Of a stretch of 64,000 nucleotides of DNA, positions 19,267 to 35,466 are shown one piece after another; position 1 is the stretch's first letter, and each line of letters opens with the position of its first letter. Origin of the DNA: Pseudomonadota bacterium. GTDB lineage: Bacteria > Pseudomonadota > Gammaproteobacteria > UBA1113. The notes under the pieces are model-generated. The model was given only the letters and a program-made list of their open reading frames with translations, did no database searches and had not been told where the DNA came from. The stretch is taken from contig JAJXVU010000002.1 of NCBI GenBank assembly GCA_021781965.1, forward strand, positions 28,788 through 92,787. Direction: 5' to 3'. The translations under genes and the position numbers were made by a program.

Positions 19267-19721
19267 TCTTTCTTCTTAATTATCGCATGTAAAAATAAAA
19301 ATGATATATTTATTCTAGGTCTTTACTGCAAAACCTCTCTGCCCCGTCATTGCGAGCCAGTGAGCGCAGCGAACAAGGCGCGGCAAAAAATGCGAGCGAA
19401 AAGCGCGAAGCGCGGCGAGTATTTTTGACGCACGTAGTGCGCCCGAAAGGGCGAAGCGCGAACGAAGTGAGAGCTGAGTCCATCCAGGGTTTAAAATACT
19501 GGATGTATAAACACCTGTGAATATTTTTAAATCTACTATCTACTATTAATTTTCGAGCGTAATCGACCAAAGCCATCGTTGCCGTTGTGTCAAACACGCC
19601 GTAAACCCATCCATGGGGGCTCGGTCGCGACGTCCTGTCGCTCACGGTTTGCCACAACTCTGCAACGATAGCTTTGGCCTTTGGTTTCGTTATTTGTTCT
19701 GTAAAAATGAAGAAAACTTAA

Positions 19722-20492
19722 TTAAGTTTCATTATCTAAGATTTCTGCTCGCGCCATCCACTCACGTTCTGCTACTTTGTCATTTTCTTCAACGTTTCTA
19801 ATATAACTAAAAACAACTTTAAACGAAATTTTTGTAAGTTCTGAGATATCGCTGCTATCACTTAAGAGCTCTCTAAAGTAGTCACTTTCAAAAATTTTTT
19901 CTGGTTCAGCTCTATTATGATTCTTATCCCAAGAAGCAGAAGTTGCTTTATCCACAAATTTACACAAGCATAATAACTCTGTTGATGAAATTTTATGGTT
20001 TGGCCAATCTAGAGAAAGTGTGGGTGATTTACTTTGCTGATATAAAACTAATGCCGATTTATCTCTATAATCTATAACCCCATAAAAAAATCTAAGATCA
20101 TTTATCTTTTTGACAATATCAATAATCTGATAGGCTGCATCTATATAGTCAGTTACATAAATAGATTGATGTGACTTGTCCGTTAATGATGATTTTAATT
20201 TATCCGCTTCTTTTAATGCATTGATAGCCTGGTGCCATTTCACATTATTGTTTTTGCATTCAGCCAGAATAGCAACTGCCTTAGAAAAATAGTTGTTAAT
20301 TTTATCTAAATAAAATAACGATTTCCTATACCTCTTGTCGAAGTAGGCTATAGCCCAAGTAGTGAACAAGCCCAGCATAGTAATAAAACCAACAGCGACC
20401 GATACCCAAACACCTATCGCGGTCCAGTTTGCTCCAGGGTCACTCCATATAGTTGGCGAGATTAAAAAATATATTCCACCCATTATATCCAC
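19722..20492 (-). CDS. Hypothetical membrane-anchored protein (single N-terminal TM, about 200 aa soluble domain); third gene of the XRE-ImmA/PIN module
   Basis: TM segment AIGVWVSVAVGFITMLGLFTTWAIAYF. No recognisable domain. 10 bp downstream of the PIN gene. Confidence 0.5.
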   Translation of the reverse strand: MDIMGGIYFLISPTIWSDPGANWTAIGVWVSVAVGFITMLGLFTTWAIAYFDKRYRKSLFYLDKINNYFSKAVAILAECKNNNVKWHQAINALKEADKLKSSLTDKSHQSIYVTDYIDAAYQIIDIVKKINDLRFFYGVIDYRDKSALVLYQQSKSPTLSLDWPNHKISSTELLCLCKFVDKATSASWDKNHNRAEPEKIFESDYFRELLSDSSDISELTKISFKVVFSYIRNVEENDKVAEREWMARAEILDNET

Positions 20493-20501
20493 CTTTAAAA
20501 T

Positions 20502-20990
20502 CTATTGACAAGTCCCTTTGCCAAGCATCATCTCAACATCCACCCATGGCAATCTACTACCCGCTTCTCTCATGCGCTGGAATCCAACGCTTGCAACTTC
20601 AACCGTGATATTTTCATTCTGAATCATCTGTTCAACTAACCATATTGTACCGTGTACTTCAACATTTAACTCTATAGCAGCTTCCCTTAGAGCCTTATCA
20701 CCCGTCAATAATTGGCAATTTTCATGTTTGGCGAGCGTCAATGCCAACATATCATTCACACTAGGCCTTATATATTTCTTATGCAGCAAATATGCCTCAG
20801 CCACCAAATCTCCATTTAGAGTTTTGCTTATCAAGCCAAGTTGCAATAAATGACTATGTCGTTCGGCTAACTCTGAAGCAAATAAGATATCAGGAACTAT
20901 AAACTGACACGGTAAACTAAACATCGCACTGGTTAGTTCTCCCTGTTCAATATCAATCAATACACTGGTATCACTGACGATCAGCAGCAT
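20502..20990 (-). CDS. PIN-like (DUF4411-type) domain protein
   Basis: N-terminal MLLIVSDTSVLIDIEQGEL, plus acidic residues in a PIN-like arrangement (NDMLALT, LLTGDKAL). Overlaps the 3' end of the ImmA gene. Confidence 0.6.
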   Translation of the reverse strand: MLLIVSDTSVLIDIEQGELTSAMFSLPCQFIVPDILFASELAERHSHLLQLGLISKTLNGDLVAEAYLLHKKYIRPSVNDMLALTLAKHENCQLLTGDKALREAAIELNVEVHGTIWLVEQMIQNENITVEVASVGFQRMREAGSRLPWVDVEMMLGKGTCQ

Positions 20991-22029
20991 ACCCGCTCTC
21001 CAAAGCCCGCAAAGATCTGAATGATTCTAGCGACATATTCATTAGCTCTGCGGCTTTGGGTTCGCCTAGGTATTCTTCGGCGATAGCATGAAAAATCATT
21101 TGTTCAAAAATATGGGTCTTTTCTTTGGGGTAAGGATCACCAGGCTCATGTTTAGACCAGCCCTTCTCATTAAACTCACTGCGCAATTGTGCATATAAAC
21201 TGTTGGATATGATTCCTATTTCCACCATTCTATGGAGAATACTCAACATGCTGATGCCAAATTCTTGCTTAAGCAAACTAAGCTCGCGAGGTTCAATATG
21301 ATTGCGGTGTTCACCCAGTATGCTAACTAAAGTTTCTTTGGGTAACAAGAATGCGCCTGCAAAACGATTACACCATTTCTCTTCATCTAACTCCGGATCA
21401 GCAAAGCCATTGAATACCAGATGACCTAACTCGTGAGCTAAAGTAAATCTTTGTCTATCTCCAGGCCACTGATTGCCGATAACAATAATCGGCATGCTAT
21501 TTATGCTCGCAGAAAAGCCATCTAATTTTGGATATTGCCGATTATCCATTTCAAATACTTTAATCCCGCGCTCTTCAAAAATATCAATGAGATCGGGTAA
21601 AGGCTCAAGCCCTAAATCCCATTGCTTGCGAATTTCATCTGCTACTGCTTCAATATCATTGTAATTGTCTATTTTTTTATGATTTAAGGAAAATGATTGT
21701 ATAGGTGGCGATGGAAATAAGCTCTCTAGTTCAACCCTGCGCTCAATTTGATCTAACATTTTGGCTTCAATTTCTTCTAATTGTCGCTTCGGCATATCGG
21801 CATGTTTGCGATACTGAATTTTTTCCAAGGTAAAGCGTTCTGGCCTAAAGAAATACTCCACCTTAACATGCAAGGCTTTTGCCAACTTAATGAGAATATC
21901 CGACGAAGGAGTCACATCGTTATCTTCATATTTTTTAATCGCCGCATGACTCAGCGCAATCTGTTCCCCCAGATCGCGTAAAGACAAGCCCAAAGCTTTC
22001 CGTGCCCGTTGAATCTTATTGCCTAACAT
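20971..22029 (-). CDS. HTH-XRE DNA-binding domain fused to an ImmA/IrrE (M78, COG2856) zinc metallopeptidase
   Basis: N-terminal IQRARKALGLSLRDLGEQIALSHAAIKKYE (XRE HTH). HEXXH zinc motif within FTLAHELGHLVF. Confidence 0.8.
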   Translation of the reverse strand: MLGNKIQRARKALGLSLRDLGEQIALSHAAIKKYEDNDVTPSSDILIKLAKALHVKVEYFFRPERFTLEKIQYRKHADMPKRQLEEIEAKMLDQIERRVELESLFPSPPIQSFSLNHKKIDNYNDIEAVADEIRKQWDLGLEPLPDLIDIFEERGIKVFEMDNRQYPKLDGFSASINSMPIIVIGNQWPGDRQRFTLAHELGHLVFNGFADPELDEEKWCNRFAGAFLLPKETLVSILGEHRNHIEPRELSLLKQEFGISMLSILHRMVEIGIISNSLYAQLRSEFNEKGWSKHEPGDPYPKEKTHIFEQMIFHAIAEEYLGEPKAAELMNMSLESFRSLRALESGYAADRQ

Positions 22030-31065: not shown

Positions 31066-32574
31066 ATGCGTAAAGCAGCCATTATCACCAGTGTAGGCAT
31101 CATCGCTGCCTTTTTTCTAGGCACTCCTTATTTCTTTGGGCAAACCAATCAATCCCTCAACGATGAATTATTAACCCGAACCAATCATTTATTACAAGGC
31201 AAAGGCGAACAACAGCCTGTGTCTGTATCACAAGAAGATGTGATCGCCAGTTTTGTCATAGATGAAAAAATTTATCATGGCCCTTTTTATTGGGGAAAAG
31301 ATGCTGCGGGCAAATCGCATTTTGGCTTTGGTCGCGGTTATTTTGTTTCAGAGGCCAAACCAGACGACAAAACTCGCCAATGGTTACAAGCCCAAGGATT
31401 ACAATCCACTGGTGCTAATTGGGAAGAACGTACCGCTGAGATATCCTTATTAGGACAAATTAACGCCACAAGTCATATGTCTGCCATAGCCTTCAAAAAT
31501 AGCGATGCCACCTTGAATTGGGAAGGTGCGAGCACCAAGATGGTAATATCACCGGGTTTAACCAGCCTTAAAGCCAATGTGACTATAGGCCCTTTGTCCT
31601 ATGTGCAACAACATTCTCTGCTCGAAGTGCCTAGCGCCAATGTGAATGTGAAATTACGTTATAAAAATGGTTTATGGGTAGGTTCATCTGAATTAAAAGT
31701 CCCGCAAATTACCACCAGTCAGAACAATAAAGCTGAGATGGCCATAGGCAACTTGTTGCTGCATGGGAATTCCAATGTTAGCGGTAATTTGCTCAGCACC
31801 ACTGTTACGCTGGGTGCGGATACCGTGCAAATTGGATCGGTAAATTATGGTCCACTCAGTTATGATTTCAATGCGAAAAATATCGACGCCAATGCCTGGT
31901 TAAGATTAAGGGATTTAGCCTCCCAATATGATGCATTGATGAATGCCAACTCATTGGTGTATAATTTGAGCCTAAAGCATTATCATCGTGGCTGGTTTAA
32001 CTCTAACGCACAAATGGTCTTGACTATCAGCCGCCCTAAACCTATAGGGCTCATTAAGCAGCAACTCAATACTTTGACCAGACAATCCGAGCTGTTGATC
32101 GTCGGTAATGAAATCAGCAAAACGCTACCCGCTATAGTCAATAAAGGTGCGCAATTCAGTTTGCAACCTACGCAGAATCATGCACAGCCCGATATGTTTC
32201 AATTCAATGCCTCGTTGACTTTCCCTAAAGTGTTGCAACCACAAGACGTAGGGCAATTGATTGAAAAAGCCGAAGCGCACGTCAAGATCTTATTTTTGTC
32301 TGACTTAATAAGAACGGCAACTGCACATCAATATCCTGACAAAAGCAACGATGATGTAAACGCATCGACGCAAACCTTGCTCAACAAATGGGTGAGCTCC
32401 GGCTATTTAAGCCAAACCGATACGCAATATCTATTTAGTTTAGATTACTCGCAAGGCAACTTAAGCGTGAATGGTAAAACAATGGCTGACGATGCGGCTA
32501 CAGTCGTATCTGAAAATGTACCCGGAATGGTAATGCCAGTGGCAGGTGCAGTTCCGCCTGTGGCAGGGAAATAG
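31066..32574 (+). CDS. YdgA-like (DUF945) envelope protein
   Basis: 502 aa with an N-terminal TM/signal anchor. Size and composition resemble E. coli YdgA. Weak call. Confidence 0.4.
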   Translation: MRKAAIITSVGIIAAFFLGTPYFFGQTNQSLNDELLTRTNHLLQGKGEQQPVSVSQEDVIASFVIDEKIYHGPFYWGKDAAGKSHFGFGRGYFVSEAKPDDKTRQWLQAQGLQSTGANWEERTAEISLLGQINATSHMSAIAFKNSDATLNWEGASTKMVISPGLTSLKANVTIGPLSYVQQHSLLEVPSANVNVKLRYKNGLWVGSSELKVPQITTSQNNKAEMAIGNLLLHGNSNVSGNLLSTTVTLGADTVQIGSVNYGPLSYDFNAKNIDANAWLRLRDLASQYDALMNANSLVYNLSLKHYHRGWFNSNAQMVLTISRPKPIGLIKQQLNTLTRQSELLIVGNEISKTLPAIVNKGAQFSLQPTQNHAQPDMFQFNASLTFPKVLQPQDVGQLIEKAEAHVKILFLSDLIRTATAHQYPDKSNDDVNASTQTLLNKWVSSGYLSQTDTQYLFSLDYSQGNLSVNGKTMADDAATVVSENVPGMVMPVAGAVPPVAGK

Positions 32575-32766
32575 TTTTAGCTTCCCCAGATGTGAATGCG
32601 TCTGGGGATGAAATAACTATCTCACATAATTGTTTGCCCCTCATCCTGAAAAAAGCCAGCCACTAAGTTTAATGCAATTCCATACCGTAAGTCATTGAAA
32701 AACATATAAAAAAATTATTTTATTAACCAATCTTTTCCCCTGCCCTTCCTCTCTATCCAGTTTGCG

Positions 32767-32814
32767 ATACGCATCTTTGCGATTCGCAAACTTGCGAATC
32801 GCAAAGATGCGTAT
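32767..32814. promoter_or_regulatory. Perfect inverted repeat (22-bp arms, 4-nt spacer) overlapping the -10 region of the AAA ATPase gene
   Basis: atacgcatctttgcgattcgca-aact-tgcgaatcgcaaagatgcgtat. The right arm runs into TATTATACT, followed by the AGGAG RBS and the ATG at 32843. Confidence 0.7.
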
Positions 32815-32842
32815 TATACTGCGTTAAAGTAGGAGAATTAAC

Positions 32843-33973
32843 ATGCGCAAAAGAGATTACTTCCCCCTAGGGATAGCCTTTGGAAAAGCTTTTTGTAACC
32901 GAAAAGAAGAAACAGACTTATTATTAAATAATATAACTAATGGCAAGCACACATTACTCATGGCTACCCGGCGATATGGTAAATCAAGCCTAGCATTACA
33001 TACCATTAGCTTAAGTAACTTGCCTTATGTTGAAACTGACTTCTATATGGCGAGCACAGAAAAAATTGTAGAGAGCTATATCTTAAATAGTGTGGTTGAG
33101 TTAATTGGCAAGGCCCTGGGTAACGTCGATAAATTAATTAGTTCTATTAAAAAGTATATAAAAACCTTAAAACCTAGATTAGAGATTGGAGGAGCCAATT
33201 TAAAGTTGGAACTGGTTGCGGCTGTAGAGTCAGATCCTGCTACCAATGTAAAAGAAGCTCTTTTACTTTTAGAACGTTTACTAGCAGAGAAAGGGAAACA
33301 AGCTGTACTGTTAATGGATGAGTTTCAGAATGTAGGTGTAATTGCTAAAGGAACAGGTATTGAAGCAGCCATTAGGCATGTGGCACAAAAGACAAAATAC
33401 CTCACTATTATATTTTCTGGGAGCAATAGAAAACTGTTGCAAACCATGTTTGAAGATGAAAATAGGCCTTTATATAAGTTATGTTGGAAATTAACGCTGC
33501 AAAGAATTTCCGCAACACATTATCAATCTCATCTGCAAAAAGCGGCGAAGGAAGCTTGGAACGAAGAACTTGAAGAAGCTGTTATTGATAAGATATTTCA
33601 ATTAACAGCGAGACATCCTTACTACCTTAATAAGCTTTGCGATAAATTATGGACTTATTATGATACCACCCCAACTATAAAGAATGTAGAGTTGCACTGG
33701 TCAGAAATCATAGCGGAAGAAAAAAGCGATGCCATCAAAGAAATTTCTGCATTGCCTTCTGGTCAAAAGAATGCTTTAAGCAAACTAGCAGAAAATGAGA
33801 CAACTCAGATGACAGAGAAGCAAACTATAATGGATCTGAAAATGACAGGTAGCTCTATTGCAAGAGCCCTAGAGGGACTAGAGGAGAAAGATATTATAGA
33901 GAAAGTTGAAACTGGCTATCAAATTATAAACCCAGTCATAAAGTTTTATGTTTTAAAAGGAAAGATATCTTGA
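32843..33973 (+). CDS. P-loop AAA+ ATPase of the archaeal-ATPase (PF01637-like) family with C-terminal winged-helix (DUF234-like) domain
   Basis: Walker A ATRRYGKSS, Walker B VLLMDEFQ, sensor FSGSN, and C-terminal wHTH region (TGSSIARALEGLEEKDIIEKV). Confidence 0.7.
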   Translation: MRKRDYFPLGIAFGKAFCNRKEETDLLLNNITNGKHTLLMATRRYGKSSLALHTISLSNLPYVETDFYMASTEKIVESYILNSVVELIGKALGNVDKLISSIKKYIKTLKPRLEIGGANLKLELVAAVESDPATNVKEALLLLERLLAEKGKQAVLLMDEFQNVGVIAKGTGIEAAIRHVAQKTKYLTIIFSGSNRKLLQTMFEDENRPLYKLCWKLTLQRISATHYQSHLQKAAKEAWNEELEEAVIDKIFQLTARHPYYLNKLCDKLWTYYDTTPTIKNVELHWSEIIAEEKSDAIKEISALPSGQKNALSKLAENETTQMTEKQTIMDLKMTGSSIARALEGLEEKDIIEKVETGYQIINPVIKFYVLKGKIS

Positions 33974-34145
33974 ACGTATAATTAAAAAAATAAATATAGA
34001 ACAAAAATGTCAGTATATTCTAGCCACACATTCGGAGTTTTTTATTGCGCCAGAAACAATCAAAAATATAATACGCTTTACTTTAGACAAGGATAATCAT
34101 ACGCTTACAAACTCACCCTCATTAACTGAAGAACAGCAAATATTT

Positions 34146-34856
34146 ATGAGAATATTAAGCAATGCAAATTCAACTCGAGCATTTTTTGGTAAGAAAATTA
34201 TACTAGTTGAAGGGCAAACAGATCAGTACTTTTTTAAAGCGGCTCTAGAAAAATCACACCCCGAGCTAATGCAAGAAATTACTGTTACTGATATTAGCGG
34301 TAAAAAGGAATATAAAGCATGGAAATCATTTTTTGAAGCTTTTGGATTGACCGTATATTATATAGGAGATTTTGATAATGTAGAGGAGTTCAAATTATCA
34401 CAGTATAAGAGATCTAAAATAAAGAAACAGATAGAGAATACTTTAAAGCAGAATAAACTGGATAAGTTAACTGAAAAACAAAAGAAAGAGTTGGAAATAG
34501 CACATAAAGAATTAGTAAAAAATGAAAATTTTATCATGTGCCCTCAGAGAACTCAATGGAAAAATTTGCTTGATATTTTTATGAAATTTGTAGCTGTGAA
34601 GGCCACGCCTCATGAAATATTGTCTAAAATGAAGGAGATGGATTCAGGAATTAATACGGAAATTGATAAGAAATATTTTGAGAAAATATATATACTGAAG
34701 TTCGGTGCACTTGAAGATTACACAGAAACCAAGCACGGTAGGTTAGATGAAATAATAAGCTTTTGTGAAAATAAGTTATCTGATTGGTTGCGCAATGACA
34801 GTAATGAGAAAGATAAAGAAATAAAAGAAATTATTCAACAGATTACAATCAATTAA
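34146..34856 (+). CDS. TOPRIM-domain protein: C-terminal part of an OLD-family (ATPase-plus-TOPRIM) nuclease, probably a 5'-truncated remnant
   Basis: TOPRIM Glu in IILVEGQTDQYF and a DxD motif in YYIGDFDNV. The same frame is open upstream to 33969 and encodes QYILATHSEFFIAP, which looks like an ABC/OLD-type H-loop, yet it has no start codon. Confidence 0.55.
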   Translation: MRILSNANSTRAFFGKKIILVEGQTDQYFFKAALEKSHPELMQEITVTDISGKKEYKAWKSFFEAFGLTVYYIGDFDNVEEFKLSQYKRSKIKKQIENTLKQNKLDKLTEKQKKELEIAHKELVKNENFIMCPQRTQWKNLLDIFMKFVAVKATPHEILSKMKEMDSGINTEIDKKYFEKIYILKFGALEDYTETKHGRLDEIISFCENKLSDWLRNDSNEKDKEIKEIIQQITIN

Positions 34857-35466
34857 CAACTACATTTTTATTAATGATGACAATCTATGCAGTTCAATAT
34901 ATTAGTGACAATAACATAGTCCATATTCTTTGCTTTCATTTGTCATCATCAATGATTCTAGTGGCATGAATGTTCTTATTAAGGGTGGCTGATCCGAAAA
35001 ATTTCGAGCCAGCCTGCGATAGGTCCATACTACTACTAGGCCTTAGTCTGTACGCCTAAGGTCAATTTCACTCACCTACAAATAAATCATTTCCTCGTCG
35101 AAACAACCTTATAGCTAAAGTATGTTTCTTAAAATGACTTAACGAGATACGCGCCCTAAAAGTAAGGATGGCGCAGCATTCCACACTCTAACTTTAATTT
35201 TACTATTTACGCTTCCAACACCTAAGCCCTTACTTAACGGGCTTTAATAAATAACTTTGCCGCAAAAAACTATATAGTTTTTTTAACTTTTTTTAAAAAT
35301 TTTTTTGTGACGGGATTTTTGGAAAATATTTAGAATACGATTCGTGTTAAAAAAGATATTGCATTTCAGAGAGCTTTCTGCAGATGGGCAGCTCACGAGC
35401 TGCCCCTACAATAGATGAATGACAATATCGAACAATTCAAAACATACGCGGTACTAAGATAACCTT

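Follow-up and report, generated by a model that had tools for sequence, protein, structure and literature searches.

A probable deletion remnant of a class 1 OLD nuclease gene beside an unrelated AAA+ ATPase gene

Known OLD-type systems and the locus

Class 1 OLD nucleases, such as P2 Old, the Thermus scotoductus protein (TsOLD; 6P74), Vibrio cholerae OLD, and E. coli YbjD, combine an AAA_15/AAA_21 ABC ATPase with a following OLD-type TOPRIM domain. P2 Old requires both its ATPase motifs and its nuclease motifs in vivo, and dimerisation of OLD proteins is mediated by the N-terminal region (PMC7049728). For YbjD, the essential part is reported to be the ATPase domain (PMC13261556). Gabija GajA, a class 2 OLD protein that is accompanied by a UvrD/PcrA-like helicase (GajB), belongs to the same ATPase plus TOPRIM superfamily. 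The locus described here has a superficial likeness to PARIS (AriA and AriB), AbiL, and Septu-type pairs, in that an ATPase gene is followed by a TOPRIM-only open reading frame (ORF).

In the window (the whole stretch of 64,000 nucleotides that was analysed), a small AT-rich islet has a DUF945 gene on one side and the cydABX operon on the other. An earlier note on this DNA had reported two plus-strand ORFs here, both of which are present, and had considered either a pseudogenised OLD-family gene or a novel split pairing. We put the probability at about 0.85 that the locus consists of a deletion-truncated OLD remnant beside an unrelated ATPase gene, which would make it ordinary gene decay rather than a new defence system. 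The main features are as follows.

32843 to 33973, plus strand: intact gene for a 376-aa AAA+ ATPase (ORF list, Pfam, AF2 model, Foldseek)
33987 to 34856, plus strand: 3' remnant of a class-1-type OLD nuclease gene (profiles, tblastn, family alignment)
34146 to 34856, plus strand: 236-aa ORF, with the ATG at 34146 as the sole canonical start in frame (ORF list)
34857 to 35466: AT-rich non-coding spacer up to cydX (ORF list; GC content of 0.30 to 0.36 compared to 0.42 to 0.45 in the flanks)

Domain content of the OLD remnant

The remnant corresponds approximately to residues 390 to 683 of 683-aa relatives and was matched with an E value of 6e-69 when one of these was the tblastn query. Its recognisable parts, in order, are listed below.

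34017 to 34046, plus strand: H-loop ILATHSEFFI, with the His at 34029 to 34031
Between H-loop and TOPRIM domain: linker
34182 to 34376, plus strand: TOPRIM domain, with E at 34209, D at 34221, and DxD at 34368 to 34376
C-terminal part: helical region, with an xLE motif at 34710 to 34715

Profile searches placed the translated remnant among TOPRIM/OLD families, with matches to Pfam OLD-like_TOPRIM (PF20469; E value, 3.1e-12; 47 bits compared to a cut-off of 23) and to PADLOC 'Old' (E value, 2.9e-16; residues 16 to 295 of 299 against profile positions 315 to 577 of 578). The TOPRIM Glu and DxD motifs described in the earlier note were confirmed by alignment: the E and D of VEGQTD (34209 to 34223) correspond to E377 and D381 of TsOLD, and the DxD of GDFDN (34368 to 34376) corresponds to D431 and D433, which are the metal-ligand residues of that protein (PMC7049728). 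The OLD-type C-terminal TOPRIM domain is thus present with its Glu and DxD.

The N-terminal ABC ATPase is not. Its Walker A/B half is missing, as had been claimed; the remnant has no Walker A, ABC signature, Walker B, or D-loop, and the 299-aa translation had no Pfam match to AAA_15 or AAA_21. Only the H-loop block survives, with ILATHSEFFI aligning to CQY[IV]LVTHSE in relatives and to CQIIYSTHSP in 6P74. Because nothing else is left of the ATPase half, the locus is the remnant of an OLD family member and not a functional member. The frame upstream of 34146 is indeed open, lacks ATG, GTG, and TTG, and encodes the H-loop, but it opens at 33957, after a TAA at 33954 to 33956, and has 63 codons instead of 58. 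Furthermore, its first ∼10 codons (33957 to 33986) are not of OLD origin but consist of the ATPase 3' end and 13 nt of an old spacer.

There are no stops and no frameshifts in the 293 codons of the remnant, only 1 of 39 family-conserved positions deviates, and all TOPRIM metal ligands are intact, a pattern expected either soon after a deletion (a very recent one) or under continued selection. AF2 modelling of the 299-aa remnant drew on only 4 sequences (pLDDT, 49.7), and the model, being of too low a quality, was left out of the fold search. NCBIfam gave nothing useful for the remnant or for the 376-aa ATPase.

Full-length relatives of the remnant are 610 to 710 aa long and have an AAA_15 ABC ATPase followed by TOPRIM (profile on residues ∼310 to 680). 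They match PADLOC 'Old' and the T. scotoductus class 1 OLD best, and they are single genes with no helicase or reverse transcriptase (RT). One of them, P0125 (AAA_15 at 1 to 413, TOPRIM at 459 to 523; best PADLOC match Old, E value 2.5e-28), has an ISL3 transposase on one side and a ParE/ParA module on the other, with no adjoining helicase. The canonical domain order was therefore found in full-length homologs, but no intact close ortholog was present in protein databases, where the nearest full-length relative was 45% identical. At ∼680 aa the subfamily is longer than TsOLD (525 aa), with a helical segment after TOPRIM, and its identity to characterised class 1 members is low (profile match to 6P74, E value 2e-14). 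Compared to class 1 OLD, the window copy has lost ∼57% of the protein and lacks a start codon at the ancestral site. It resembles class 1 in being a solo gene, without a helicase, retron RT/ncRNA, or other partner. No ORF of >38 aa occurs in the ORF list between 34857 and 35466, so that a helicase, RT, or other partner gene is absent 3' of the remnant, and Rfam searches of the whole window gave no matches at the gathering threshold.

The likeness to Gabija, PARIS, and AbiL that had been pointed out is limited to the ancestry of the remnant; neither a helicase nor an AriA-like or other partner gene is present. Several PADLOC GajA models match the remnant (E value 2e-11 and weaker), but the Old model outscores every one of them, and no GajB-type helicase lies directly downstream of the remnant or beside P0125. 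The ABC part of the OLD subfamily profile finds distant matches in AriA and PtuA. In contrast to AriA, which is an ABC protein, the ATPase in the window is Orc/Cdc6-like AAA+ with a winged helix, and in contrast to AriB, the TOPRIM ORF is truncated from a fused OLD and has no DUF4435 match in Pfam.

The neighbouring ATPase gene

The ATPase gene is preceded by its own control region.

32762 to 32820, plus strand: operator/promoter of the ATPase gene (sequence, promoter scan)
32777 to 32789: 13-bp palindrome TTGCGATTCGCAA
32792 to 32804: 13-bp palindrome TTGCGAATCGCAA
32792 to 32820: promoter scan match, with −35-like TTGCGA and then −10 TATACT (32815 to 32820)
32832 to 32835: Shine-Dalgarno sequence GGAG of the ATPase gene

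The 376-aa protein contains Walker A (RRYGKSS) and Walker B (LLMDEF) motifs. It matched Pfam AAA_14 above the cut-off (E value, 9.9e-8) and covered the full ATPase_2 (PF01637) profile just short of it (E value, 1.6e-7; 31.8 bits compared to a cut-off of 33.2). The AF2 model (pLDDT, 85.7) had 2FNA and 2QEN as its top Foldseek matches over nearly all residues (E values of 7e-14 and 4e-13, respectively; TM ∼0.7), followed by Orc1/Cdc6, and phmmer also detected 2FNA (E value, 2e-4). With a Walker A/B core, a helical lid, and a C-terminal winged helix all present, as in PF01637/AAA_14-type proteins, the modelled fold identifies the protein as an Orc/Cdc6-like AAA+ ATPase and not an ABC ATPase. Fold and domain order are like those of the archaeal-type PF01637 ATPases SSO1545 (2FNA) and PABY2304 (2QEN), whereas the protein in the window is bacterial (from Legionellales-like metagenome-assembled genomes [MAGs]) and belongs to a subfamily with an upstream operator array.

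This subfamily is very tightly conserved (60 to 80% identity among hundreds of homologs), and at least 884 homologs of the protein were found. Comparison of the window with the syntenic locus L012 gave a dN/dS of 0.032 at a dS of 0.21, and the ATPase is thus under strong purifying selection. In addition to TTGCGATTCGCAA and TTGCGAATCGCAA, the operator has a third, degenerate palindrome copy, and all are nested in a longer inverted repeat. Homologs carry equivalent upstream palindromes with co-varying half-sites, compared to an expectation of ∼0.1 per 160 nt in shuffled sequence. Most likely, the TTGCGAnTCGCAA palindromes that overlie the ATPase promoter are bound by the ATPase itself, which would constitute autoregulation.

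In order to evaluate the pairing of ATPase and OLD genes, 67 loci with ATPase homologs (490 kb) were searched by tblastn and with an HMM of 25 full-length OLD relatives. No OLD neighbour was found at 66 of them, L012 being the only locus with OLD sequence. This pairing is thus not a system, and nothing comparable to the conserved AriA/AriB pair of PARIS was seen. The suggestion of a novel split pairing or re-assorted locus does not agree with this result, with the AAA+ fold, or with the finding described below that the ATPase was a neighbour before the deletion. The ATPase gene is autonomous, lies outside the OLD gene, and was unaffected by the deletion.

The ancestral arrangement and the origin of the remnant

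Three further features bear on how the remnant arose.

32637 to 32717: patchwork relic of a stretch of ∼740 bp, with about 40 + 35 nt left (alignment of window 32560 to 32850 with L012 6350 to 7295)
33953 to 33982, plus strand: promoter-like site TTAAAA-18-TATAAT (10 of 12), overlapping the ATPase 3' end (promoter scan)
33975 to 33986, plus strand: deletion junction; CGTATAATTAAA is the last stretch common to the window and the L012 spacer

L012 is syntenic with the window (COQ7, DUF945, ATPase) at 88 to 95% nucleotide identity. There, the same ATPase gene is followed by a 111-nt spacer and then by a Walker-A N-terminus from this OLD subfamily, in an ORF that begins MKVNFIQISN...ILIGQNGSGKST and matches the N-termini of P0125 and P0132 (E values of 3e-18 to 3e-24) as well as AAA_15/AAA_23. 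The L012 sequence is a contig from a MAG and stops 300 nt past a MITE-like repeat; the OLD gene on it can be traced to codon ∼69. Identity between the window and L012 (blastn) ends at 33986, 13 nt beyond the ATPase stop and inside the L012 spacer. This arrangement indicates that the ancestral locus held the ATPase gene and a full-length OLD gene, and it supports the earlier suggestion of a pseudogenised OLD-family gene. The window junction was identical in six independent assemblies (L001 to L006) and so does not stem from misassembly. JGI metagenome contigs, scanned by exact pattern, gave no match to the shared 28-mer of ATPase 3' end and spacer. The ∼740-bp stretch in L012 holds a 146-aa minus-strand ORF (L012 ORF list) with a weak match to Xre_MbcA_ParS_C/DUF2384 (Pfam E value of 2.5e-4, below the cut-off), and its relic in the window points to further deletions within the islet.

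The sequence missing from the window lineage amounts to ∼1.26 kb, made up of 98 nt of spacer and ∼389 codons. Read in the OLD frame, CGTATAATTAAA gives R-I-I-K, which resembles the family block YLR[IV]I[EK], with an extra E in the alignment (YL-E-RII); CGTATAATTAAA was therefore probably a 12-nt microhomology at the deletion site, an assignment that stays indirect because an intact close ortholog was not found. The promoter-like site at 33953 to 33982 is identical in L012, with the OLD start codon ∼100 nt further downstream, and it is probably the former OLD promoter, kept just upstream of the junction. With this site, and with no terminator after the ATPase gene (none were detected between 32500 and 35650), transcription of the remnant is plausible.

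The same comparison decides against two other readings. The earlier note had described the missing half as replaced by an unrelated P-loop ATPase, and a mobile cassette of operator, promoter, and coding sequence (32770 to 33963) might have inserted into an intact OLD gene, taking the place of its 5' half. ATPase homologs are single genes in many unrelated, housekeeping contexts, nucleotide homology among their loci is limited to 32770 to 33963 with sharp ends, and the OLD-like frame seems to start almost exactly where the ATPase coding sequence ends. However, at the same chromosomal site in L012 the ATPase gene is followed by a normal spacer, into which identity continues for 13 nt, and a true OLD start, so the ATPase stood beside the OLD gene and not inside it. 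In addition, the window has no OLD 5' half upstream of the ATPase gene and no transposase or terminal repeats at the cassette edges, and insertion was rejected as very unlikely. A programmed +1 frameshift within 33957 to 33970 would yield an AAA+-wHTH-TOPRIM fusion protein, since both frames are open over a shared 14 nt, with the OLD frame at +1 to that of the ATPase. However, AAAGGAAAGATATCTTGA has no slippery or RF2-like shift site, stimulatory Shine-Dalgarno sequence, or structure, and ATPase homologs have variable tails that all end at the same point. L012 has the same ATPase 3' end with no TOPRIM downstream, which makes the overlap a by-product of the deletion and the frameshift barely credible; it too was rejected.

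It also seems unlikely that the locus has become a split system. In that case a 236-aa TOPRIM-only protein would be translated from ATG 34146, on a transcript that reads through or comes from the retained promoter, and would serve as a nuclease effector in its own right, perhaps under the control of the AAA+/winged-helix ATPase by analogy with AriA/AriB. The intact catalytic residues and conserved positions, the promoter-like site, and the lack of a terminator would fit such a protein, and OLD C-terminal regions are nuclease competent in vitro (PMC7049728). TOPRIM-only ORFs of the subfamily also recur, at P0153/L023 and P0161/L083. However, these have different upstream sequences, with a Walker-A fragment directly upstream in L023 and an unrelated 207-aa fragment in L083; a genuine short form was therefore rejected, and both are debris of different rearrangements. 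ATPase-OLD adjacency is confined to one lineage pair, conservation of the ATPase is just as strong at loci where OLD is absent or, as in L012, broken differently, and the known partners of TOPRIM nucleases are ABC proteins. The lack of a clear Shine-Dalgarno sequence before 34146 counts for less, since the OLD start in L012 also has none. That the 236-aa ORF is retained as a 'headless' OLD nuclease, alone or gated by the DNA-binding ATPase, is a long shot; if true, it and the 5'-truncated OLD copies in other lineages (L007, L023, and L083) would mean that split or solo TOPRIM effectors have repeatedly arisen from fused OLD.

Under the favoured reading of deletion and decay, the islet would once have held two independent tandem genes, an autoregulated AAA+/winged-helix ATPase gene and a solo class-1-type OLD gene for a protein of ∼680 aa, with an ABC ATPase carrying an inserted dimerisation domain and then a TOPRIM two-metal nuclease. 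In the window lineage, a single deletion, probably by slippage or illegitimate recombination at the 12-nt direct repeat CGTATAATTAAA, would have fused the 13th base past the ATPase stop codon to OLD codon ∼390. The ribosome-binding region, start codon, Walker A, Q-loop, dimerisation domain, ABC signature, Walker B, and D-loop would have been lost, leaving the H-loop, linker, TOPRIM, and C-terminal helices. Because P2 Old needs both sets of motifs and the N-terminal region responsible for dimerisation is gone, this pseudogene fragment should be unable to act as an OLD defence protein. The undecayed remnant may still give residual expression of a TOPRIM-only protein, and the ATPase gene would go on functioning alone.

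What appeared to be a two-gene defence system is thus a chance neighbour and a deletion remnant. In the output of gene callers the fragment appears as an ordinary 'OLD-like TOPRIM' protein of 236 aa, which defence-system finders could miscount. The more interesting neighbour is the AAA+/winged-helix ATPase family, which is conserved and solitary and has its own operators; nothing here ties it to OLD function. Sister lineages that hold complementary 5' and 3' OLD remnants, together with several other broken copies of the subfamily, illustrate how solo OLD genes turn over rapidly and are lost again and again.

Domains and ancestry of the remnant

The locus is a decaying class-1-type OLD gene, of a known kind, beside an unrelated intact AAA+/winged-helix gene. 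The two open reading frames are as follows.

Window 32843-33973, same strand as the TOPRIM ORF: ATPase ORF, 376 aa
Window 34146-34856, same strand as the ATPase ORF: TOPRIM ORF, 236 aa

Pfam assigned the TOPRIM ORF to OLD-like_TOPRIM (PF20469; E value, 3e-12, above the curated cut-off). Residues 16 to 295 of its upstream-extended, 299-aa translation aligned with positions 315 to 577 of the 578 in the PADLOC "Old" model (E value, 2.9e-16); the PADLOC GajA models scored more weakly. These matches put the earlier note's observation of a TOPRIM nuclease ORF without its Walker A/B half far beyond chance. On the extended translation, Pfam returned no match to AAA_15, AAA_21, DUF4435 or RloB. The upstream frame contains no ATG, GTG, or TTG, as had been noted, but it is open for 63 codons rather than 58, beginning at 33957 after a TAA at 33954 to 33956. 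The remnant H-loop aligns with CQIIYSTHSP of the Thermus scotoductus class 1 OLD (TsOLD; 6P74), which was the best solved relative (E value, 2e-14), VEGQTD aligns with E377/D381, and GDFDN aligns with D431/D433 (residue roles from PMC7049728).

A word-indexed protein search returned only three relatives (44 to 58% identity), with an ABC signature, Walker B (IIDEPE), D-loop, H-loop (LVTHSE), and TOPRIM, and an exhaustive profile search returned 3,316. Full-length relatives are 610 to 710 aa, with AAA_15 preceding TOPRIM, and the profile covers their residues ∼310 to 680. In one of these, P0125 (683 aa; best PADLOC model, Old, 2.5e-28), AAA_15 spans residues 1 to 413 and TOPRIM spans residues 459 to 523. 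The remnant is equivalent to P0125 residues ∼390 to 683 (tblastn E value, 6e-69), with ∼57% of the protein gone. P0125 is flanked by an ISL3 transposase on one side and a ParE/ParA module on the other. Because there is no helicase in the P0125 neighborhood and no ORF of >38 aa between the remnant and cydX, the ancestry is that of a solo, class-1-type OLD (classes as defined in PMC10568477) and not Gabija, retron, or PARIS.

Loss of the 5′ half

When genomes were scanned with the ATPase protein, the matches included L012, a contig from a gammaproteobacterial MAG of Lake Mendota. It is syntenic with the window over COQ7, DUF945, and the ATPase gene (88 to 95% nucleotide identity). Identity passes the ATPase stop codon plus 13 bases and stops at window 33986. 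Beyond this break, L012 has a spacer and then an ORF from L012:8530, MKVNFIQISNILSFKY...ILIGQNGSGKSTALEVVNFIFKK, with matches to AAA_15, AAA_23, and the remnant's relatives P0125 and P0132 (tblastn E values, 3e-18 to 3e-24). This ORF is the Walker-A N terminus of the remnant's own OLD subfamily. The arrangement in L012 indicates that the ancestral order was the ATPase gene, a 111-nt spacer, and a full-length OLD gene. This supports the earlier suggestion of a pseudogenized OLD-family gene, not the proposal that an unrelated ATPase had replaced the Walker half.

In the window lineage, the remaining spacer and ∼389 codons, about 1.26 kb, were lost. Translated in the OLD frame, the last 12 bases common to the window and L012, CGTATAATTAAA, give R-I-I-K, in agreement with YLR[IV]I[EK], a block of the family; what looks like its "YL" ahead of them derives from the ATPase 3′ end and forces an extra residue into the alignment. 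The deletion probably occurred between 12-nt direct repeats. Protein searches and a scan of JGI metagenome contigs yielded no intact close ortholog in which the repeats would be visible. The junction was the same in six independent assemblies and is thus not an assembly artifact. The L012 OLD frame has no family resemblance past codon ∼69, where it enters a MITE-like repeat; what remains in this sister lineage appears to be the complementary 5′ part, although this is also the end of the MAG contig.

The remnant itself is probably dead as an OLD protein, because mutations in Walker A/B, the signature, D-loop, H-loop, or TOPRIM abolish P2 Old activity in vivo and OLD dimerization maps to the lost N-terminal region (PMC7049728), and because the essential part of Escherichia coli YbjD is the ATPase domain (PMC13261556). 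A small door is left open by a promoter-like TTAAAA-18-TATAAT at 33953 to 33982, just 5′ of the junction and also kept in L012 upstream of the OLD start, by conserved residues (60 full-length relatives define 39 positions with ≥85% conservation, of which the remnant deviates at 1 and intact relatives at 0 to 8), and by the TsOLD C-terminal region, which is stable when isolated and drives nuclease activity in vitro (PMC7049728). No terminator was found ahead of the remnant ORF, and its 293 AT-rich codons contain no stop. The simplest reading of its history is a recent deletion; the sampled copies were all identical but for one SNP, in the ATPase gene.

The ATPase as an independent gene

The ATPase matched AAA_14 and, marginally, PF01637. 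Its confident AF2 model (pLDDT, 85.7) had 2FNA and 2QEN, both archaeal PF01637 ATPases, as its nearest structures, followed by Orc1/Cdc6 proteins, and the predicted fold is an AAA+ core with a winged helix, not ABC. There are at least 884 homologs, many 60 to 80% identical, mostly in Legionellales/Berkiella-like MAGs. One close homolog sits between ABC-transporter genes and another between rne and rplS; nucleotide homology among the loci is limited to window 32770 to 33963. Members of this very tightly conserved family are always solitary, and their genomic contexts are unrelated; some metagenome bins have several paralogs. Between the window and L012, in both of which OLD is broken, the ATPase gene differs at 50 nucleotides and its product at only 6 residues (dN/dS, 0.032; dS, 0.21). 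A novel split pairing, the other reading offered earlier, was not supported: OLD-like sequence was detected (tblastn; HMM of 25 full-length relatives) in only 1 of 67 ATPase-homolog loci (8 from genomes and 59 from metagenomes; 490 kb), that of L012. Given the fold, scattered contexts, selection, and lack of recurrent pairing, the "ATPase + TOPRIM" appearance is a coincidence of neighborhood plus deletion.

In close homologs, one to three palindromes of 13 bp, TT[GA]CGnnnCG[CT]AA, lie directly 5′ of the −10 box (for example, TTGCGAnTCGCAA, TTACGAnTCGTAA, and TTGTGAGTCACAA).

Window 32762-32820: palindrome array over the ATPase promoter
L012 7205-7265: palindrome array over the ATPase promoter
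L013-L018 and L025-L042 (ATPase-homolog loci), upstream of the ATPase match: palindrome arrays

Half-sites covary between homologs, and shuffles yield ∼0.1 palindrome per 160 nt. The palindromes look like a typical operator for autoregulation, to which the ATPase presumably binds through its own winged helix.

Erosion of the islet and other broken OLD copies

The islet is eroding. Of a ∼740-bp stretch upstream of the L012 ATPase gene, all but ∼75 nt is missing from the window, and the whole islet is AT-rich (GC, 0.30 to 0.36 versus 0.42 to 0.45 in the flanks). Two short relic pieces lie at window 32637 to 32717 (counterpart, L012 6421 to 7162). A 146-aa minus-strand ORF in this stretch of L012, between DUF945 and the ATPase gene, weakly matches an Xre/MbcA/ParS antitoxin C-terminal domain (DUF2384-like).

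The MITE-like element is ∼111 bp, with GC above its surroundings and 15-nt terminal inverted repeats, CAAAGCCATCGTTGC...GCAACGATGGCTTTG.

Window 19560-19716: MITE-like repeat
Window 62531-62583: partial copy
L012 8777-8933: MITE-like repeat, directly 3′ of the truncated OLD 5′ fragment

Adjoining the first copy (19722 to 22029, minus strand) is a cluster of small, putative defense/TA-like ORFs, in which a 162-aa PIN-like protein overlaps a 352-aa protein with predicted HTH and ImmA/IrrE-like domains, accompanied by a 256-aa protein without assignment.

Broken OLD copies of the same subfamily were found at four other loci. An internal deletion fuses a Walker-A fragment to the TOPRIM part in L023 (1-776), the TOPRIM part lies behind an unrelated 207-aa fragment in L083 (4433-5717), the copy in L007 (1323-2912) has a foreign N terminus, and L010 (1-1297) has an inversion inside the gene. 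The L083 copy is inside a serine-recombinase element adjoining cydB/cydX, like the window locus. The possibility that TOPRIM-only ORFs are a conserved short form was rejected, as these are four different rearrangements, which argues for frequent decay as the probable origin of such ORFs.
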